The notes: a model not told the origin generated them from the sequence alone. 64,000 bases of DNA from Patescibacteria group bacterium (GCA_018814025.1 JAHJAM010000023.1:1896-65895), one strand, 5' to 3'; positions 910 to 62,760 are shown, numbered from the stretch's first letter. Program-made: numbers and translations.

Positions 910-1458
910 TTAATCCGTATATGTTTGAATGTGTTTGGCCTCCATCATCAGCCGTTGCAAATCATCCATAAAGGGCCCGTAAACCGCGGTCGTTCTTTCC
1001 GCTGTTTCGATCAAATAAAAAGGCTGTTCGCCTTCTATCCCCGACCAATTCGGGCGGGCATAAACTTCGATGGTTGACCTGCCAGCCTTGCCGTCGCCTT
1101 CCGGTGGGCAATCGTTGTTCATTTCGATGCTCTGAATCAATTGAAAACCCGCAGGTGCCCCGTTGAATTTTGTGGTGGATTCATGATCCCGTCGTCGCGC
1201 CAAATAGTTCACAAACGTTTCCTTCTCCACGTAGTGCACTTCAGTCAGCACCTCTTTGCTTGGTTCGGAAAAAATTTTATCTTTAATGCCGATGGTTAAT
1301 CGATTTTGCTCGGCCACGACCTTCTCTAGAGTATTCACCTGCATCACTAAAAATATCAAAAAGAAAATCACCCCGATACTCCCCATTACCCCCATCAAAT
1401 CCCAAACTTGAGTGTGAGTTTTCTTCGGCGCTTGCGTCACTTGTGGAAACTCCTCCAT
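910..1458 (-). CDS. hypothetical membrane-anchored protein
   Basis: 182-aa ORF with one N-terminal TM helix; I recognise no family. Confidence 0.4.
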   Translation of the reverse strand: MEEFPQVTQAPKKTHTQVWDLMGVMGSIGVIFFLIFLVMQVNTLEKVVAEQNRLTIGIKDKIFSEPSKEVLTEVHYVEKETFVNYLARRRDHESTTKFNGAPAGFQLIQSIEMNNDCPPEGDGKAGRSTIEVYARPNWSGIEGEQPFYLIETAERTTAVYGPFMDDLQRLMMEAKHIQTYTD

Positions 1459-14243: not shown

Positions 14244-16643
14244 TTAAAAGGACTTGCAATTCTTATCGAACTTAGCCTTGGCCGCCTGATTGTTGGCCAT
14301 CAGCTCCTTCCAATTGGCACACAGAGCCTGCTGTCTGGGCGTGAGCTTCGGCTTTCCTCCCTGCTTCTTGCCGCCAGTCCCAATGGACCGAACAACCGGG
14401 CTTGCTCTGGGCAGATCGTTCTTGGAAACCTCGCCCCTGAACAGGAGCCAGCCCAGGAAGATGGCAACCAACATGGCCGATATTGTAGCGATCAAACCGG
14501 CCAAGTCAGGGCTGAAAGCGCTCAGCCCATCTTTGTACGAGCGTTGCATGCTTGCCCTGACAACCCCGCCGATCACCAAACAAATGATGATAGACAGAAT
14601 CACGAACAGTGCCTTACCACTGAGATCAGGCAGCTGATCAACGCCCATGATCGACAGAGAACTGTCGTTGATCATGTATTTCTGCTGGCCGGAAGGCGTC
14701 TCCACGGTCTTGACCAGAACTCCGGGCAAATTGACCATCGTGCCCTTGGGCAGGACCACGATCCCGGCCGCTCCGTCGCACGTGAAGTGCTCGACCAAAG
14801 CCTTTTTCTGCGCTTTAGCCTCAGTCTGCTTGCTGACGTTGTTCTTATTCTCCTCAGTCAACAAGCACTTGTCAGTCAAAGCCGCACTCAGCTTCTCACC
14901 GAAGACCTTGAGGGCCGGCTCGTAGCGCTGGCCCGGCAAAGGCACAACCAGGGTGTTAACCTGCTCGCCCTTGTCCGAAAACTCAGCCTGCCAAGCCACG
15001 GTCACGGGAAAAGCTGCACTCTCGCGCAAATCGTTGATCACGGCCGCTCGGCCGCACACCAACAACATCACGATCGCCAGCAAGATCGGCCAAGTGCCGA
15101 TCCGCTCTTCGCTTTTGGCCGAAAACAGCCAGGCCGAGAGCAGCAGCGCCGCCAACGTTCCCACCACTCGGCCGAACATCGCAAAGTCAGCCAAGTTAAT
15201 GAACACGCACAGGACCATGTTGAGCACGATCGCCCAAGCCAGACCCCGAGCGTAATTCACGCCCCAATGGAAATCTCGGCCGGCCGCGATTTCCGTGACT
15301 CGATCCAGCACTGCCTCCACAGCCTTCACCGGAAGCAGTAGCAAGGCAAGCGGCAGTCCCAGCCCCATGGCCAGCCCAATCGCCAAGACCGGGTAACCGA
15401 TCAGTGTGGCCAACCATGGCAAAGCCAGGAGCAACACCGCGATCAGCAAGCCCACAATGGACCGCTTGACCCAGGTCCAGATGAACTGTTTTCGGCGCGT
15501 GGCGACTTGGTCGCCTCCCTCATCGTCCGTAAACAAAGAGAGAATCGTCGATTTCCACTCCTGGAAGGGCGCCAATTCCGCGCCGCTCACATCAAGAGCG
15601 GTGATGTATTCGATCATGAACTCTTCCGGCATTGTGCCGTCAGGCTCAATTTTTCCCTCGAGCTGATGAGCCAGCTCTTCCAGGACCTGCACATTGCGAA
15701 TCGTCGCCGGATTATTGACCGCTTCCAAGAACTTCTCAAAGTTCTTGTACTTGACTGAGGTGAAGCTCAGCGAAGTCGTCCCGCGCATCCGACGTGCCAC
15801 CGACCTGATCACGGCCACGTGGACCTTGATCAACAGCGGACTGGCCTGGTCGAAATTCTTGACCGAAGGCTGGGTAGCGGTTGAAGCTTTCTTTTGAAGA
15901 TCAACCTCACCCACATTCCCCATGCACACCGGACAGAAGAATTTCTTCTGAGCCAAAGCGATGCCGATGGGATGAACTTCGACTTTCCAGAGCTTGCCTC
16001 CGACCAGCACATCCTTTTTTAACTTGTTGTCCCACCGTGTGGTCTGGGCATTCAGCTCCTCAAACATAGCCTCCGCACTCGCATACAGCTCGCACGGAAC
16101 CACCGGATTGCCATTCTCCTTCTTCATGACCGTCCCGTCGGCATTGAGCGCCACGCGATGCGCACCAGCCACCCGGGGGGCGACCGCTGCCATCTCGTAC
16201 TCGCCCACCGACGCGGCCGTCGTACCCGCGGCCGGCGTACCCAATTTCTCATCAACCGTCCGGTCAATGAGATCTTCGAGATCCGCATCCGCCAGCCCGT
16301 CCACAGCACCGAAGCACAGATGAGGAATCAGGGCCTTGATCACGGCTTTGGTCTTGGGCTTCAAGTAAGCGCTTGGAATAAAATCCACGAGCCACTCAGC
16401 CGCCCCGCCGACCGCTCGTCCGAACATCTCGAACCCCGGCAGTTTGCGCGCGCCATTGATCAACAGGAAGAAGGACTTGGCGAACTCGTTCTCATTCTGG
16501 CGCTTGGCCAGCTCCACCAGCAATGAACCGGCCACGTTCCGAGCCCCTTTCTCAAAGGTCTCGGTTCCGACCGCCTTGCCGGCAGTACCAAAAAAGTCTC
16601 CAAACCTGCTCAAATCCAAGTCTCCAAAAGTCACCTTGGCCAT
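14244..16643 (-). CDS. large polytopic membrane protein of unknown function (about 400-aa soluble N-terminal region with a CPVC motif, then two TM clusters and a basic C-terminal tail)
   Basis: 799-aa ORF with a good SD (GGAGGAAAGAG) before the ATG; GC-rich with AAG-preferring codon usage unlike the flanks; I recognise no known domain. Confidence 0.5.
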   Translation of the reverse strand: MAKVTFGDLDLSRFGDFFGTAGKAVGTETFEKGARNVAGSLLVELAKRQNENEFAKSFFLLINGARKLPGFEMFGRAVGGAAEWLVDFIPSAYLKPKTKAVIKALIPHLCFGAVDGLADADLEDLIDRTVDEKLGTPAAGTTAASVGEYEMAAVAPRVAGAHRVALNADGTVMKKENGNPVVPCELYASAEAMFEELNAQTTRWDNKLKKDVLVGGKLWKVEVHPIGIALAQKKFFCPVCMGNVGEVDLQKKASTATQPSVKNFDQASPLLIKVHVAVIRSVARRMRGTTSLSFTSVKYKNFEKFLEAVNNPATIRNVQVLEELAHQLEGKIEPDGTMPEEFMIEYITALDVSGAELAPFQEWKSTILSLFTDDEGGDQVATRRKQFIWTWVKRSIVGLLIAVLLLALPWLATLIGYPVLAIGLAMGLGLPLALLLLPVKAVEAVLDRVTEIAAGRDFHWGVNYARGLAWAIVLNMVLCVFINLADFAMFGRVVGTLAALLLSAWLFSAKSEERIGTWPILLAIVMLLVCGRAAVINDLRESAAFPVTVAWQAEFSDKGEQVNTLVVPLPGQRYEPALKVFGEKLSAALTDKCLLTEENKNNVSKQTEAKAQKKALVEHFTCDGAAGIVVLPKGTMVNLPGVLVKTVETPSGQQKYMINDSSLSIMGVDQLPDLSGKALFVILSIIICLVIGGVVRASMQRSYKDGLSAFSPDLAGLIATISAMLVAIFLGWLLFRGEVSKNDLPRASPVVRSIGTGGKKQGGKPKLTPRQQALCANWKELMANNQAAKAKFDKNCKSF

Positions 16644-16830
16644 CTCTTTCCTCCGTATACGGCTAAGCCGATTTGTTTTTAGGTTGTTAACGATCTATTT
16701 AAACTCGGCTAAGCCGAGAGATCTCCCCATATGGGATTGCCGATTAATCGGCCTACCCGCATACGAAAGACACGTAAATATACCATATTTTAGCCAAAAT
16801 GTCAACCCTGTCTGACAGGGCCCTTGAAAC
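16644..16830 (-). promoter_or_regulatory. promoter (TTGACA-N17-TATATT, minus strand, 16777-16805) plus a palindrome-rich 5' leader for the 799-aa gene
   Basis: Palindromes CCCTGTCTGACAGGG (16806-16820, abutting the -35), GCCGATTAATCGGC (16739-16752), CGGCTAAGCCG twice (16660-16670, 16706-16716) and CCGTATACGG (16653-16662). Confidence 0.45.
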
Positions 16831-16879: not shown

Positions 16880-18085
16880 TTAAGCCAAAATCTCCTGATC
16901 AATACCCTGCCAATTCATCACTTTCGCCAAATCCCCGGTTCTTTGGTCAATCACCTTTGTCAGCGGTACTCGATCGCTGTTGCGCCCCATCACCACCGCC
17001 CCCACTAATTTGTTATCCCTCATCAACATTAATGTTGGACCATGCTCGTCTCCTTTTCTCACCAAAACCTTGTCCGCAGCTGCTAGTTCTACATCACCCA
17101 CAAAAGTAATATCCAATCCCAAAATCTCCATTGCATAACTTGGCACTTGTTGATATTCACTCCGCTCACCTGCCATAGACTTCGCCACCACTCGTCCTTG
17201 GCTCATGGCTTTTTGCCAATTGCCAAACATAATGTGCCGATTGGCGACTACGTCAAAATATTCCGCCACATCCCCAACCGCCCAGACGTCTTCAACATTG
17301 GTTTCTAAAAACTCATTCACTTTCACTCCGCGATCAACTTCAATCTCTGCATCCTTAATCCAACCCAAATCACTCTGGACCCCAATTCCAATTCCCAAAA
17401 TATCACACTCAACTTTTTGATTTTCCAGTTTCATTCCCTCTAATTCCTTTTCACCTTCGACTCCTAAAAATTTTTGTTCAGTCAAAATTTTCACACCTTG
17501 CTGGCGCAAATGTTCATTTAAAAATTCACCGGCTTCTTCATTCAAATTCTTGCTCCAAAAGTGTTGGCCGCGCAAAGCGATGGTGGTCGGCAATTCATGA
17601 GCAACAAATAGGTTCAAGTATTCGCAAGCGATTAAACCGCCGCCCCAAACCGCGGCCGGGTCGCCTTTTTTTCGCTCATTTAACAACTGTTTTAAGTGAT
17701 CCGCATCATCCAAACTCCGCAAATAAGAGACTCCACGCACATCTCCATCCACCACTCTTGGTTCATTTCCCGAAGCAATTAACAATTTATCATAAGGCAA
17801 CTCACGCCCATCAGAGAGTTCCACAAACTTATTTTTGGTATCACATTTCACTACTTCCACCCCACGCAACCATTCAATATTTTTCTCTTCATACCAACTT
17901 TCCTTTTTCAAAAACACCCGTTCGCGTTCTACTAAACCTTTTAAGTAATGCGGCAACAACACCCGCGAATATAACGGATGTTGTTCTTGGCTGATTAAAA
18001 TAATCTCACCGTCTGAATCAAGTTTTCGCAGTTCTTCGGCCGCTGTTGTACCAGCCACGCCTCCGCCCACGATTACGTACTTCAT
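16880..18085 (-). CDS. FAD-dependent pyridine nucleotide-disulfide oxidoreductase (ferredoxin/rubredoxin-reductase or NADH-oxidase-like)
   Basis: MKYVIVGGGVAGTTAAEEL Rossmann GxGxxG at the N-terminus; a second NAD-binding motif (GGGLIACE); about 400 aa. Confidence 0.7.
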   Translation of the reverse strand: MKYVIVGGGVAGTTAAEELRKLDSDGEIILISQEQHPLYSRVLLPHYLKGLVERERVFLKKESWYEEKNIEWLRGVEVVKCDTKNKFVELSDGRELPYDKLLIASGNEPRVVDGDVRGVSYLRSLDDADHLKQLLNERKKGDPAAVWGGGLIACEYLNLFVAHELPTTIALRGQHFWSKNLNEEAGEFLNEHLRQQGVKILTEQKFLGVEGEKELEGMKLENQKVECDILGIGIGVQSDLGWIKDAEIEVDRGVKVNEFLETNVEDVWAVGDVAEYFDVVANRHIMFGNWQKAMSQGRVVAKSMAGERSEYQQVPSYAMEILGLDITFVGDVELAAADKVLVRKGDEHGPTLMLMRDNKLVGAVVMGRNSDRVPLTKVIDQRTGDLAKVMNWQGIDQEILA

Positions 18086-18086
18086 A

Positions 18087-18353
18087 TTATAATTCTGGAA
18101 AAATTTGCTTGCCCTCTTCATTGTAAATAAATACTGCCAAAGTCGGACAAGACTGTGCGCCTAAAAGTATATTTTCCTTTTCTTCTTCACTCACTTCAAT
18201 CACTCGTTCATATTTGTTTCCCTCCGGACTTTGGCCGTGATCCAAAACCCAAGCTTTGTTCTCTTCATTAAGTTGAAAAGTCTCCGGCGCAATGGTCACG
18301 CATGAGGCCGCTCCAATACACAGTTCCGGATCGACTTTGATGGTTATCTTCAT
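18087..18353 (-). CDS. small ferredoxin (4Fe-4S / 3Fe-4S single-cluster type)
   Basis: CIGAASC...C..CP cysteine pattern within 88 aa; the stop abuts the oxidoreductase start. Confidence 0.55.
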   Translation of the reverse strand: MKITIKVDPELCIGAASCVTIAPETFQLNEENKAWVLDHGQSPEGNKYERVIEVSEEEKENILLGAQSCPTLAVFIYNEEGKQIFPEL

Positions 18354-18877: not shown

Positions 18878-20059
18878 TTATTTTGATAAATTCACTGGCG
18901 ATATCTCGCGGAGTTTTTCCACTAAAGGCGGCAATTTCTCCAGCACATAATTAATGTCTGCTTCGGTGGTCGAACGCCCCAAGGAAAATCGCAATGATCC
19001 GTGAGCTTCTTCAAATGGCCGGCCCGTGGCCACGATGACGTGCGAAGGATCAAGCGACGCGCTCGTGCAAGCCGAACCGGTCGAAGCGTAAATCCCTTGC
19101 GCATCCAAATATAAAACCAAAGCTTCGCCTTCGATATCCAAAAATGAAAGATTAACATTGTTGGGCAAGCGCTTGATTGCGTGTCCATTTATATAAGTCT
19201 TCGGCACTCGCTTTTGAATGCCCGCCATCAACTGGTCGCGCAGTTTAACCAGTCTGGCCGATTCCTTCTGTTTATTTTTTTGAGCGATTTCCAAGGCTTT
19301 GGCCATGCCCACGAATCCGGCCACGTTTTCCGTACCCGGCCGCAAGCCTTTTTGCTGATGCCCGCCGTGCATAATCGGTTTGATTTTCGTGCCTTTTCGA
19401 ATGTACAAAACCCCGACTCCTTTCGGCCCGTAAATCTTGCCCCCGTTTAAAGTCATCAAATCCACATGCAATTTTTCCACGGACAAATCCAAATATTCCG
19501 GCGCCTGGCAAGCATCCGTGTGAAAAACCGGCCGCGCCTTTTCGCCCCGCAGTTTCACGATTGCCTTGCCGATTTCAGCGATCGGCAAAATCGTGCCAAT
19601 CTCGTTGTTGGCGTACATGATCGAAACTAAAATCGTGTTCGGACGCATCGCGGCCATGACCTGTTCGGCAGTGATTAAACCGTCCGCATCCGGGGTCAGA
19701 TAAGTTACCTCAAATCCTTGCTCTCTTTCCAAATATTGAATGGTTTCCAAAACCGCGTGATGTTCAAACTTGGTGGTGATGATGTGCTTGCCCTGATCTT
19801 GATTGGCCCAAGCCGCGCCCAGGATGGCCAGATTGTCCGACTCGGTCCCGCCGGAAGTAAAAATAATTTCCGAAGCCCTGGCCTCCAAAATCTTCGCCAC
19901 GGTTTCACGCGCTTGATCCATGGCGTCTTTGCCTTTTTTCCCCGGCGTATGAAAACTCGAAGGATTGCCAAAATCCTCAGTCAAATAGGGTTTCATGGCC
20001 TCAAACACCTGTAAATCTAAAGGTGAAGTGGCCGCGTGATCAAGATAAACTTCTTTCAT
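18878..20059 (-). CDS. cysteine desulfurase (NifS/IscS, class V aminotransferase)
   Basis: MKEVYLDHAATSP...; PLP-lysine region; about 390 aa; immediately upstream of the scaffold gene. Confidence 0.8.
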   Translation of the reverse strand: MKEVYLDHAATSPLDLQVFEAMKPYLTEDFGNPSSFHTPGKKGKDAMDQARETVAKILEARASEIIFTSGGTESDNLAILGAAWANQDQGKHIITTKFEHHAVLETIQYLEREQGFEVTYLTPDADGLITAEQVMAAMRPNTILVSIMYANNEIGTILPIAEIGKAIVKLRGEKARPVFHTDACQAPEYLDLSVEKLHVDLMTLNGGKIYGPKGVGVLYIRKGTKIKPIMHGGHQQKGLRPGTENVAGFVGMAKALEIAQKNKQKESARLVKLRDQLMAGIQKRVPKTYINGHAIKRLPNNVNLSFLDIEGEALVLYLDAQGIYASTGSACTSASLDPSHVIVATGRPFEEAHGSLRFSLGRSTTEADINYVLEKLPPLVEKLREISPVNLSK

Positions 20060-46501: not shown

Positions 46502-46560
46502 AAGCAACTTAATAAAAATCCCCCGCTTAGCCGTTTGCTGAGCGGGGGATTTGTGTTTTG

Positions 46561-51738: not shown

Positions 51739-51766
51739 AAAACACCCCGGCTGAGCCAGGGTGTTT

Positions 51767-52666: not shown

Positions 52667-52743
52667 GCACCCGTAGCTCAACCGGATAGAGCAGGAGGGT
52701 TCTAACCTCAAGGTTGCAGGTTCGAGTCCTGCCGGGTGTACCA
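52667..52743 (+). tRNA. tRNA-Arg (anticodon TCT)
   Basis: Acceptor GCACCCG/CGGGTGT; D arm GCTC..GAGC; anticodon loop GTTCTAA; T-loop TTCGAGT; CCA encoded; unusual G27-A43 mismatch and G32. Confidence 0.7.
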
Positions 52744-52944
52744 TCGAGCTTGGCTCGAACAGATAGTAATTTCTCATGGCGACTATGGTGTAACGGTTAG
52801 CACATCAGTTTGTGGTACTGATAGCGAGGGTTCGACTCCCTCTAGTCGCCCCATCGAGCTTAGCTCGATTGTTTCGCGGTTAGCCAAAGCTAAGCTTTGG
52901 CCGTACTCGAGATAAGCTCGATGATCAGGCCAGCTGAGCTGGCC
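52744..52944 (+). repeat. cluster of five AGCT-core palindromic hairpins trailing the tRNAs
   Basis: TCGAGCTTGGCTCGA (52744), TCGAGCTTAGCTCGA (52854), GCCAAAGCTAAGCTTTGGC (52883), TCGAGATAAGCTCGA (52907), GGCCAGCTGAGCTGGCC (52928). Confidence 0.5.
52778..52853 (+). tRNA. tRNA-His (anticodon GTG) with encoded G-1
   Basis: G-1 pairing with C73; acceptor GCGACTA/TAGTCGC; anticodon stem TCAGT/ACTGA with loop TTGTGGT; T-loop TTCGACT. Confidence 0.75.
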
Positions 52945-52960
52945 CACCAAAACAAATAAT

Positions 52961-52983
52961 CTCCCTTTTGGGGAGGTTTTTTG
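52961..52983 (+). terminator. intrinsic terminator closing the tRNA cluster
   Basis: CTCCC-TTTTG-GGGAG followed by GTTTTTT. Confidence 0.55.
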
Positions 52984-53035
52984 TATTAATCCTTTACTAA
53001 TCCGCCTCAAATCAGTAAGCTATGGGCGCTATTCT

Positions 53036-62444: not shown

Positions 62445-62760
62445 CCGAGCTGAGCTCGTTTGATGTTCACTTCCGATGGAGTCTTTTTTATTCATATCAG
62501 AACTAATTCAAGATTTGGATTGATGTACATTTAGTTTATTACTCCAAAGCATTAATTAGATATACTGTGATGTCTGACATATCCAAAGTCTGATTAAGAA
62601 TTGTATACAAAACCAAAGATTCTATCGTATCAATATTCAAAAATCCTTAATCAATATCTCGGGGGGATCGAATACAAGTGAGGTATACCAAAATCGAGTT
62701 CCATGTGAAACAAATCAAAATTTTCTTAAGTCGTATACGTTATCAAAATACCAAAGTTAT

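Follow-up and report, generated by a model that had tools for sequence, protein, structure and literature searches.

Short structured repeats next to bacterial genes are known in several forms. The REP/BIME repeats of Enterobacteria and Pseudomonas are short imperfect palindromes with a conserved GTAG-type head, located in extragenic regions downstream of genes as solo units or clusters, transcribed as part of 3' ends, and dispersed in a genome while being tied to one gene family, that of the Y1 (HUH) RAYT transposases, whose genes are flanked by REPs. Rickettsia palindromic elements (RPE) and other bacterial MITEs (Correia, ERIC, BOX) are structured repeats of ~100 nt that are co-transcribed with neighbouring genes, RPEs being inserted in frame in ORFs, and transposase-mobilised MITEs are recognized by terminal inverted repeats and target-site duplications. 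IS200/IS605-derived elements (PATE) have subterminal hairpins, are inserted 3' of a fixed tetra- or pentanucleotide, and have TnpA or TnpB nearby. Free-standing GIY-YIG homing endonuclease genes lie next to conserved genes, as does SegB in the tRNA cluster of phage T4; SegB is the subject of a published paper (PMC13096335). In Neurospora mitochondrial DNA, GC-rich PstI palindromes built around a restriction-site-like core reportedly flank tRNA genes on both sides and were reportedly proposed as processing signals or mobile repeats (Yin, Heckman and RajBhandary 1981). Structured RNA between a tRNA and its terminator, released on processing, is represented by the tRNA 3' external transcribed spacers (e.g. 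E. coli 3'ETS-leuZ) and by RNase III processing stems. The locus described here carries palindromic hairpins fused to tRNA 3' ends, which belong to one ~95-base folded repeat element that is apparently undescribed and that, in many ultra-small (CPR/Patescibacteria) bacteria, is located exactly at the 3' end of tRNA and tmRNA genes and is often followed by a small GIY-YIG nuclease gene.

The window analysed is a stretch of 64,000 nucleotides from a Candidatus Uhrbacteria (Patescibacteria) genome (GCA_018814025.1, JAHJAM010000023.1:1896-65895). It encodes PolA (identical to one in GCA_018822945.1), HolA, a XerC/D-like recombinase and other chromosomal genes, and six tRNA genes, all with encoded CCA. 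An earlier note had claimed that palindromic hairpins built around AGCT-N-AGCT directly abut tRNA 3' ends, citing seven sequences, and this observation is confirmed: all seven sequences are present at the places given for them. The motif AGCTNAGCT occurs five times in the window against 0.43 expected from dinucleotide shuffles, with 0 of 100 shuffles reaching five, and all five lie within 150 nt downstream of a tRNA 3' end with none elsewhere in the 64 kb. Some details of the claim require correction. Two of the seven sequences are not exact AGCT-N-AGCT (AGCTTGGCT and AGATAAGCT); in relatives the conserved core is GC-TNA-GC, for example CGCTCAGCG in L004, one of the related loci (designated L) that were compared; tRNA-Ser and tRNA-Cys of the window have ordinary terminators without the motif; hairpins with a GCTNAGC apex also occur at three non-tRNA intergenic places in the window; and the hairpins after tRNA-His, which the note had taken for a stack of relatives, are parts of one element rather than independent. 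The features are listed in the table below.

Coordinates of the tRNA genes, hairpins and terminators in the window, with the basis for each assignment
Position	Strand	Feature	Basis
52667..52743	+	tRNA-Arg(TCT) with encoded CCA; host gene of the first solo hairpin	ARAGORN; Rfam tRNA, 61 bits
52744..52758	+	Solo H1 unit TCGAGCTTGGCTCGA (TCGAGC-UUG-GCUCGA), starting at the base after A76 of tRNA-Arg(TCT); U/A-class H1 with loop UUG instead of UNA	Sequence; 6-bp stem with a triloop; same H1 class as the tRNA-His copy
52779..52853	+	tRNA-His(GTG) with encoded CCA (C74-A76 = 52851-52853); host gene of the complete module	ARAGORN; Rfam
52854..52949	+	Complete long-form module (H1, P2/H2, S4, UG, H3, CACCA)	Covariance model R1: 69.4 bits, E 4e-12, on the + strand against 37 bits on the - strand; homologous copies in L004, L030, L051 and L085; alignment with L003
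52854..52868	+	H1, TCGAGCTTAGCTCGA (UCGAGCU-U-AGCUCGA), directly after tRNA-His; can fold locally (6-7 bp) or pair with S4	Folding; covariation of the outer pair
52883..52901	+	H2, GCCAAAGCTAAGCTTTGGC (GCCAAAGC-UAA-GCUUUGGC), the apex hairpin of the long arm	Folding; covariation
52907..52923	+	S4 plus UG (UCGAGAUAAGCUCGA-UG), with TCGAGATAAGCTCGA at 52907-52921; complementary to H1 and, through the UG, to C75-A76 of tRNA-His, giving helix P1 = 52852-52868 with 52907-52923	MFE folds pair these stretches, including C75 and A76; covariation of loop bases
52928..52944	+	H3, GGCCAGCTGAGCTGGCC (GGCCAGC-UGA-GCUGGCC)	Folding; present in the long forms although not part of the search pattern
52958..52984	+	Intrinsic terminator of the tRNA-Arg/tRNA-His transcript (stem-loop 52958-52978 plus T-run); not part of the module	Terminator scan; conserved in L003
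62370..62444	+	tRNA-Arg(CCT) with encoded CCA	ARAGORN
62445..62459	+	Solo, slightly decayed H1 unit (CCGAGC-UGA-GCUCGU) directly after A76 of tRNA-Arg(CCT), with CGAGCTGAGCTCG at 62446-62458, one base after the tRNA	Sequence; the same tRNA carries a full module in L004, L030 and L085
62836..62868	+	tRNA-Ala(CGC) terminator, a 15-bp perfect palindrome that starts at A76, with CCAGCTTAGCTGG at the apex (H3-like apex CAGCUUAGCUG; CAGCTTAGCTG); possible remnant or relative of the module	Sequence; folding

A PolA profile retrieved 80 loci from species-representative genomes, of which about 68 are Candidatus Uhrbacteria or other Patescibacteria (52-62% PolA identity for the Uhrbacteria-titled records) and the rest are Firmicutes and Actinobacteria that serve as an outgroup. 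In the orthologous trailers of related genomes, the same ordered set of elements recurs after different tRNAs: Arg-CCT in L004, L030 and L085, Ala-CGC in L051, and Arg-TCT in L054. The order is H1, YCGAGCTNAGCTCGR, directly after CCA; a linker; H2, a variable stem with apex AAGCTNAGCTT; a return linker that pairs with the first one to form P2; S4, either GCTN'AGCGAGG or GAGATN'AGCTCGA; UGA; and H3, with apex CAGCTNAGCTG. L004 shows compensatory changes, TCACGC-TCA-GCGTGA after tRNA-His and GGCAAACGC-TCA-GCGTTTGCC as H2, and the conserved core is therefore GC-UNA-GC at each apex rather than AGCT as such. The closest relative, L003, whose PolA is 86% identical to that of the window, has the same tRNA-His and the same terminator but lacks exactly the ~96 nt of the complete module, the indel falling between CCA and the terminator.

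A search of metagenomes with a pattern that contains no tRNA sequence (CGAGCTNAGCTCG, a gap of 12-26 bases, then AAGCTNAGCTT; 22 specified bases, estimated to give about one chance hit per terabase) matched at least 120 stretches, where about one match is expected by chance by the same estimate. The contigs carrying the module include the 785-kb Ga0233429_1000002 and the 478-kb Ga0233430_1000011. Of the 137 matches in 120 of these loci, 75 lie within 4 nt after a tRNA called by ARAGORN, of 16 amino-acid types (70 of them at exactly CCA + Y); at least 7 lie directly after tmRNA (4 by ARAGORN, others by Rfam or sequence); about 10 follow a duplicated last ~20 nt of a tRNA, displaced by a different ~170-nt insertion; and 14 are in tandem or inverted arrays. 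About 70% of copies are located at tRNA or tmRNA 3' ends, with H1 always first, in the orientation of the tRNA. Where CCA is not fully encoded, the first CC of H1 takes the place of C74-C75 (L051, L090, L208, L214), and so the module starts where the encoded tRNA ends, with zero spacing to the CCA or, where CCA is not fully encoded, to the discriminator, rather than at a CCA string. The same pattern had no exact match in IMG/VR, blastn found no match in GenBank phages, and a protein comparison with phages gave only one weak hit, leaving no support for a phage origin. The earlier note had set two conditions under which its observation would fail, namely that the motif be equally common away from tRNA genes or absent from all other tRNA loci, and neither holds: in the Uhrbacteria loci, which were not selected for the motif, AGCTNAGCT is 20-fold denser in the 150 nt after tRNAs (0.45 per kb) than elsewhere (0.022 per kb), and it is present at many other tRNA loci. 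Nevertheless, only 5 of 164 tRNAs in the unselected Uhrbacteria loci carry the motif, and the non-CPR outgroup loci have none in 232 kb. The covariance model built from 40 copies finds no further copies in the Uhrbacteria loci, but recovers L051, which was not in the seed, at 69 bits.

For an alignment of 40 non-redundant long-form copies, pairs were counted for a structure consisting of P1 (H1 with S4), P2, H2 and H3. Of the cells, 85% are paired against 75% in shuffles, and the covariation score is 0.283 against 0.113 in shuffles (0 of 500 reach it) and 0.04-0.08 for slid partners. Changes on both sides occur in 5 of 8 pairs in each of P2 and H2, 3 of 7 in H3 and 2 of 10 in P1. The apex sequences of H1 and H2 were fixed by the search pattern, so that their invariance is uninformative, but S4, H3, P2 and the outer H2 stem are independent observations, and the loop U and A are invariant in H3 as well. 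The loop base N of H1 pairs with N' of S4 as C-G 13, G-C 9, U-A 7 and A-U 1, i.e. in 30 of 40 copies, where about 12 standard pairs would be expected from the column compositions, and a tandem G.A/A.G inside P1 is kept in 38 of 40 copies. The outer Y-R pair of H1, which was not part of the search pattern, is C-G in 91 and U-A in 42 of 137 copies. Both the local H1 hairpin and the long-range P1 are therefore supported, which suggests two alternative conformations. In the MFE fold of the window copy, the UG after S4 pairs with C75-A76 and only C74 stays unpaired between the acceptor stem and P1; unconstrained MFE folding prefers P1 in most copies. In minimal forms, found in the Collierbacteria, Levybacteria and L214 loci, the first palindrome itself includes the last bases of the tRNA, as in UCACCAAGCUNAGCUUGGUGA. 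G.U outnumbers A.C 49 to 7 in P2, H2 and H3, and the covariance model scores 69-85 bits in sense against 24-37 in antisense; the fold is therefore selected on the tRNA-sense strand, either as RNA or conceivably as top-strand single-stranded DNA. No Rfam family, self-cleaving ribozymes, T-box and tRNA-like elements included, accounts for it: only tRNAs pass the gathering score in the whole window, and at E<=10 the module region gives only chance-level hits of 10-18 bits. Readings of the conserved GA/GGUGA as K-turn, hammerhead or T-box-like were rejected because the sequences do not fit the consensus and Rfam gives no support.

Several features of the distribution are signs of mobility. Occupancy is patchy among close relatives. 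In L054, a second, partial copy of 47 nt (H1+H2) matches the tRNA-Arg copy of the same genome at 44 of 50 positions and lies antisense and in frame inside an ndh-like ORF, where it replaces a conserved stretch and adds 7 residues relative to the L034 orthologue. In L090, a copy interrupts a GIY-YIG ORF, with duplication of the first 30 nt of the ORF. Tandem second copies are located a few bases after the terminator of the first copy. A ~90-aa GIY-YIG protein is encoded on the same strand, starting 54-310 nt downstream of H1, in about 24 of 120 metagenome loci. It matches Pfam PF01541, its relatives with solved structures are the UPF0213 proteins 1ZG2 and 1YWL, and more than 2,000 relatives were found at E<=1e-10. 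In some loci the ORF follows directly after H2, with an S4-like segment after the ORF, whereas in others it follows a complete module, a terminator and a promoter-like stretch. In a reciprocal test, four homologues were chosen only by homology and by the extent of the contig they lay on: P0059 (Yanofskybacteria), P0135 (Collierbacteria), P0141 and P0146 (Levybacteria). All four lie directly behind a tRNA whose spacer is made of AGCUNAGCU hairpins, while the other ten of the 14 tRNAs in those loci have none. The Collierbacteria and Levybacteria cassettes (L212 versus L217) are about 97% identical over the spacer and the 5' two-thirds of the ORF, but their host tRNAs (Glu-CTC and Glu-TTC) are about 75% identical, the flanks are unrelated, and similarity stops about 30 nt after the stop codon. 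No GIY-YIG gene is present in the window or in any of the ~68 Uhrbacteria PolA loci, so that the nuclease link is by family, not local.

The best explanation, held with moderate confidence, is that the hairpins of the window are ORF-less copies of a widespread, horizontally mobile cassette family of Patescibacteria that occupies the position immediately 3' of the last encoded base of tRNA and tmRNA genes. The window would hold one complete copy after tRNA-His, solo H1 units after the two tRNA-Arg genes, and possibly a remnant in the tRNA-Ala terminator. In this view, the constant part of the family is the ~95-nt module, which would be transcribed as the 3' trailer of the tRNA (co-transcription being inferred from zero spacing, sense orientation and the position upstream of the terminator) and would fold as RNA into hairpins capped by GC-UNA-GC, with H1 pairing either with itself or with S4 in a helix that also draws in C75-A76; many copies bring their own terminator; and the GIY-YIG protein is taken to be the partner that drives or once drove the spread. 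The analysis demonstrates the module, its exact position, the conservation of its structure, its association with the nuclease gene and its patchy and horizontal distribution; what remains inference is the molecular role, namely that the fold acts as a self-contained processing and insulating trailer so that insertion leaves the tRNA maturable, by the same logic as self-splicing introns, as suggested by the RNA-level constraints, the pairing with the CCA end and the frequent built-in terminator, together with any transcript or processing product, any site-specific cleavage of an empty target by the encoded enzyme, and the notion that the window copies are non-autonomous leftovers with little or no current function for the host. 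Some observations weigh against this explanation. The nuclease is a bare catalytic domain with no DNA-binding domain, unlike characterised homing endonucleases; the terminator and promoter-like sequence that separate the module from the ORF in many loci imply that the gene could be a later settler next to the module rather than its driver; no target-site duplication was found, the sequence after H3 not repeating the last bases of the host tRNA, with only a CA(C) that can pair with the (G)UG before H3 recurring in about half of copies; no transposition mechanism is known that would give zero-spacing insertion after 16 different kinds of tRNA; and ORF-less copies keep their structure over deep divergence, which also fits a host-useful RNA.

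The interpretation offered in the earlier note is partly supported. Of its three options, a miniature repeat family that targets tRNA-distal sequence is the best supported, although the unit is a multi-hairpin module, found across CPR lineages and linked to a GIY-YIG nuclease gene, rather than single hairpins. A hairpin for processing or protection in tRNA 3' maturation, or more generally a host-encoded signal, a trailer helix that starts at or includes CCA and is recognized or cleaved by a host RNase or blocks 3' exonucleases, whose repetition would reflect common function rather than mobility and which would define the mature 3' end in these reduced genomes, fits the zero spacing to the CCA or discriminator, the pairing of C75-A76, the strand-specific structure with covariation, the occurrence at both tRNA and tmRNA (the two RNAs with a tRNA-type 3' end), and the location of the module in the spacer between tRNA-Arg(CCT) and the next tRNA-Ala in L004 and L085. 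However, it cannot be a general maturation signal when only about 3% of tRNAs in unselected Uhrbacteria loci carry the motif, the closest relative lacks it at the same tRNA and most tRNAs in the GIY-centred loci lack it, and the copies inside ORFs and the far greater conservation of the cassette than of its host tRNA make a purely host-beneficial signal unlikely. The third option, a recognition site for a DNA-binding protein or recombinase, is not excluded, since the loop U and A are invariant and a nuclease gene is associated. The neighbouring XerC/D-like recombinase is not implicated, because it is syntenic in relatives that lack the motif at these tRNAs.

A DNA-level reading nevertheless remains as a partly compatible rival, though a doubtful one: the 9-bp palindromes AGCT-N-AGCT may be binding or cleavage sites, as duplex, cruciform or single-stranded hairpin, for a dimer of the GIY-YIG nuclease or another dimeric protein, analogous to REP sequences and their RAYT transposase, the RNA fold being incidental. 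The same 9-mer recurs 3-5 times per module with different flanks; the invariant loop U and A cannot pair inside a triloop and are not explained by hairpin pairing; and the nuclease association is consistent with it. C-TNA-G resembles the CNNNG cleavage motif of the I-TevI GIY-YIG domain, GCTNAGC is the BlpI/Bpu1102I site, and Hpy188I (TCNGA) is a GIY-YIG restriction enzyme. Against this, the excess of G.U over A.C indicates that only one strand's fold is under selection, variable stems with compensatory changes and the H1-S4 loop covariation point to base pairing and not duplex reading, no nuclease gene is present in the window or in Uhrbacteria loci, and GCTNAGC as such is neither enriched nor avoided (23 observed against 15.6 expected in the window, and 303 in 1.4 Mb of loci), counts of GCTNAGC and AGCT being near expectation outside hairpins. 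That the hairpins are ordinary terminators or attenuators sharing a stable loop by chance or base composition is ruled out: two hairpins with this apex in the window are true terminators (tRNA-Ala and about 51740-66) and the module is followed by a terminator, but H1, H2, S4 and H3 (52744-58, 52854-52944, 62445-59) are not followed by T-runs, the terminator scan calls only 52958-78 in this region, the motif count exceeds expectation, at least 120 independent contigs carry the two-hairpin pattern with a conserved third hairpin and conserved linkers, and the outgroup lacks the motif. A more speculative possibility, considered unlikely, is that the module is a new class of cis-acting self-processing trailer RNA that, by pairing with the CCA end and presenting UNA-capped hairpins, would direct precise release of the tRNA or tmRNA 3' end, either by its own catalysis or by recruiting an RNase or the GIY-YIG protein, with the H1/H1:S4 alternative pairing as the switch; tRNA 3' ends would then be a safe landing site for a selfish nuclease gene, and the trailer would be the 3'-end counterpart of self-splicing introns and inteins, which neutralise their own insertion.

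If the favoured explanation is right, tRNA and tmRNA 3' ends in the candidate phyla radiation are colonised by a previously unnoticed family of structured repeats tied to the very common but functionally unassigned UPF0213/YhbQ-type GIY-YIG proteins. It would give this protein family a first genomic context and candidate substrates (AGCTNAGCT hairpins and tRNA-gene ends), give a marker for horizontal exchange among CPR genomes, and add a class of 3' trailers that any tRNA-processing model for these reduced organisms must handle. The fusion to CCA with zero spacing, with the CCA drawn into a helix, would be a concrete handle on how bacteria with few RNases make tRNA 3' ends. For annotation, these ~100-nt blocks would explain part of the unusually long tRNA-distal spacers in CPR genomes, and should not be read as small-RNA genes or terminators.

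Full-text literature searches on CPR tRNA trailers and repeats, on GCTNAGC, and on GIY-YIG proteins together with tRNA found no description of this element, and it is best regarded as a structured repeat or selfish cassette that differs from each of its nearest analogues. Like REP/BIME repeats, it occurs as short palindromes, solo or clustered, tied to one gene family, but it has no GTAG head (copies are preceded by CCA), its partner is a GIY-YIG protein rather than a Y1 HUH protein and is not flanked on both sides by the repeats, downstream flanking hairpins are seen in only a few loci, and it is a fixed multi-hairpin unit at exactly +1 after tRNA or tmRNA. It resembles RPEs in size and in the in-frame copy of L054, but no target-site duplication was found, and the preference for tRNA and tmRNA 3' ends is not known for any bacterial MITE. 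H1 and S4 are inverted-repeat-like, although internal to the module since H3 lies beyond S4, and no transposase-type terminal inverted repeat is apparent. With respect to PATE, insertion is 3' of NCCA or of the discriminator, CCA alone cannot explain the tRNA specificity, and no tnpA or tnpB was noticed among the genes called next to the loci examined, which were not searched systematically for them. It shares with free-standing GIY-YIG homing genes such as SegB the lodging beside tRNA genes, a sporadic distribution and a cassette more conserved than its surroundings, but the CPR protein is only ~90 aa, the cassette carries a conserved structured leader that also survives without the ORF, and the hosts are cellular genomes. 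The Neurospora palindromes have a different sequence and belong to a different domain of life, and no nuclease partner or multi-hairpin module is known for them. The P1-P2-H2 rod is inferred to be long enough to be an RNase III-type substrate, but tRNA 3' external transcribed spacers are single-locus, vertically inherited sequences, not a repeat family that moves between tRNA genes and genomes. None of REP/RAYT systems, free-standing GIY-YIG homing genes such as SegB, the Neurospora PstI palindromes and RPE-type MITEs combines a fixed multi-hairpin module, zero-spacing fusion to tRNA and tmRNA 3' ends, and a UPF0213 nuclease partner.

The GCTNAGC core found at the apices of the tRNA-associated hairpins also occurs elsewhere in the window. 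Two hairpins with apex GGCTAAGCC (the same GCTNAGC core; CTCGGC-TAA-GCCGAG) lie in the 236-nt gap between two minus-strand genes, one encoding a protein with no Pfam hit and the other a Pyr_redox_2 protein; they are not next to a tRNA and may be a related hairpin type in a 5' leader. The convergent terminator between the XerC/D-like recombinase gene and the presenilin-like protease gene has apex GCTGAGC, and a second terminator carries two GCTNAGC motifs in its loop. The apex motif is therefore also used in ordinary terminators of this genome. A different palindrome of 14-16 bp, (T)GTTTCACGTGAAAC(A), recurs between tRNA-Arg(CCT) and tRNA-Ala(CGC), or just after tRNA-Ala, in many Uhrbacteria loci, including the related locus L004; the window holds a degenerate copy, GTTCCATGTGAAAC. 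This palindrome looks like a conserved operator or promoter-associated site.

Positions of hairpins, palindromes, insertions and neighbouring genes in the window and in related loci
Sequence	Position	Strand	Feature
Window	14244-16643	-	Gene with no Pfam hit
Window	16662-16672		Hairpin with apex GGCTAAGCC
Window	16704-16718		Hairpin with apex GGCTAAGCC
Window	16880-18121	-	Gene for a Pyr_redox_2 protein
Window	46525-46543		Second terminator, with two GCTNAGC motifs in the loop
Window	~51740-51766		Convergent terminator with apex GCTGAGC
Window	62698-62711		Degenerate copy, GTTCCATGTGAAAC, of the 14-16-bp palindrome
L003	1150-1251		tRNA-Arg(TCT)-to-tRNA-His spacer with ~100-nt long hairpin
L004	~19946-19962		14-16-bp palindrome
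L054	404-1654		ndh-like ORF
L054	about 1195-1300	-	Module copy (H1+H2) within the ndh-like ORF
L093	2059-2231		Insertion with duplicated tRNA 3' end

In locus L054, the ndh-like ORF stays open through an antisense copy of the first two hairpins (H1+H2) of the tRNA-trailer module, which replaces the conserved GRI.VD stretch and adds 7 residues relative to the orthologue in locus L034.

Other structures were also found after the 3' ends of tRNA genes. In the closest relative (locus L003), the spacer between tRNA-Arg(TCT) and tRNA-His is a different long hairpin of ~100 nt (CCAAAC...GTTTGG) that also starts right after the CCA, and trailer helices that begin at the tRNA end may be a wider habit in this lineage. 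A second, unrelated trailer family is present after tRNA-Arg(TCT) in loci L009, L038 and L063, after tRNA-Arg(CCT) in locus L021 and after tRNA-Ala(GGC) in locus L208; it starts directly after CCA with (T)TCGACT, followed about 30-40 nt on by GCTCATGGT (GCTCGTGGT in L208). In L208 this trailer is followed by a different GIY-YIG gene, encoding 133 aa, which hints that pairing of structured tRNA trailers with GIY-YIG genes is a general theme in CPR genomes. Finally, insertions of about 170-190 nt that duplicate the last ~20 nt of a tRNA were observed in loci L093, L131, L143, L173/L176 and L190, with similar sequences after tRNA terminators in loci L015, L020, L022, L026 and L065. The order of elements is the intact tRNA, its own terminator, then (in most of these loci) a GGGAATCGAAC-like stretch, the duplicated tRNA 3' end and then the old trailer, which is a classical integration signature of another small element that targets tRNA 3' ends.
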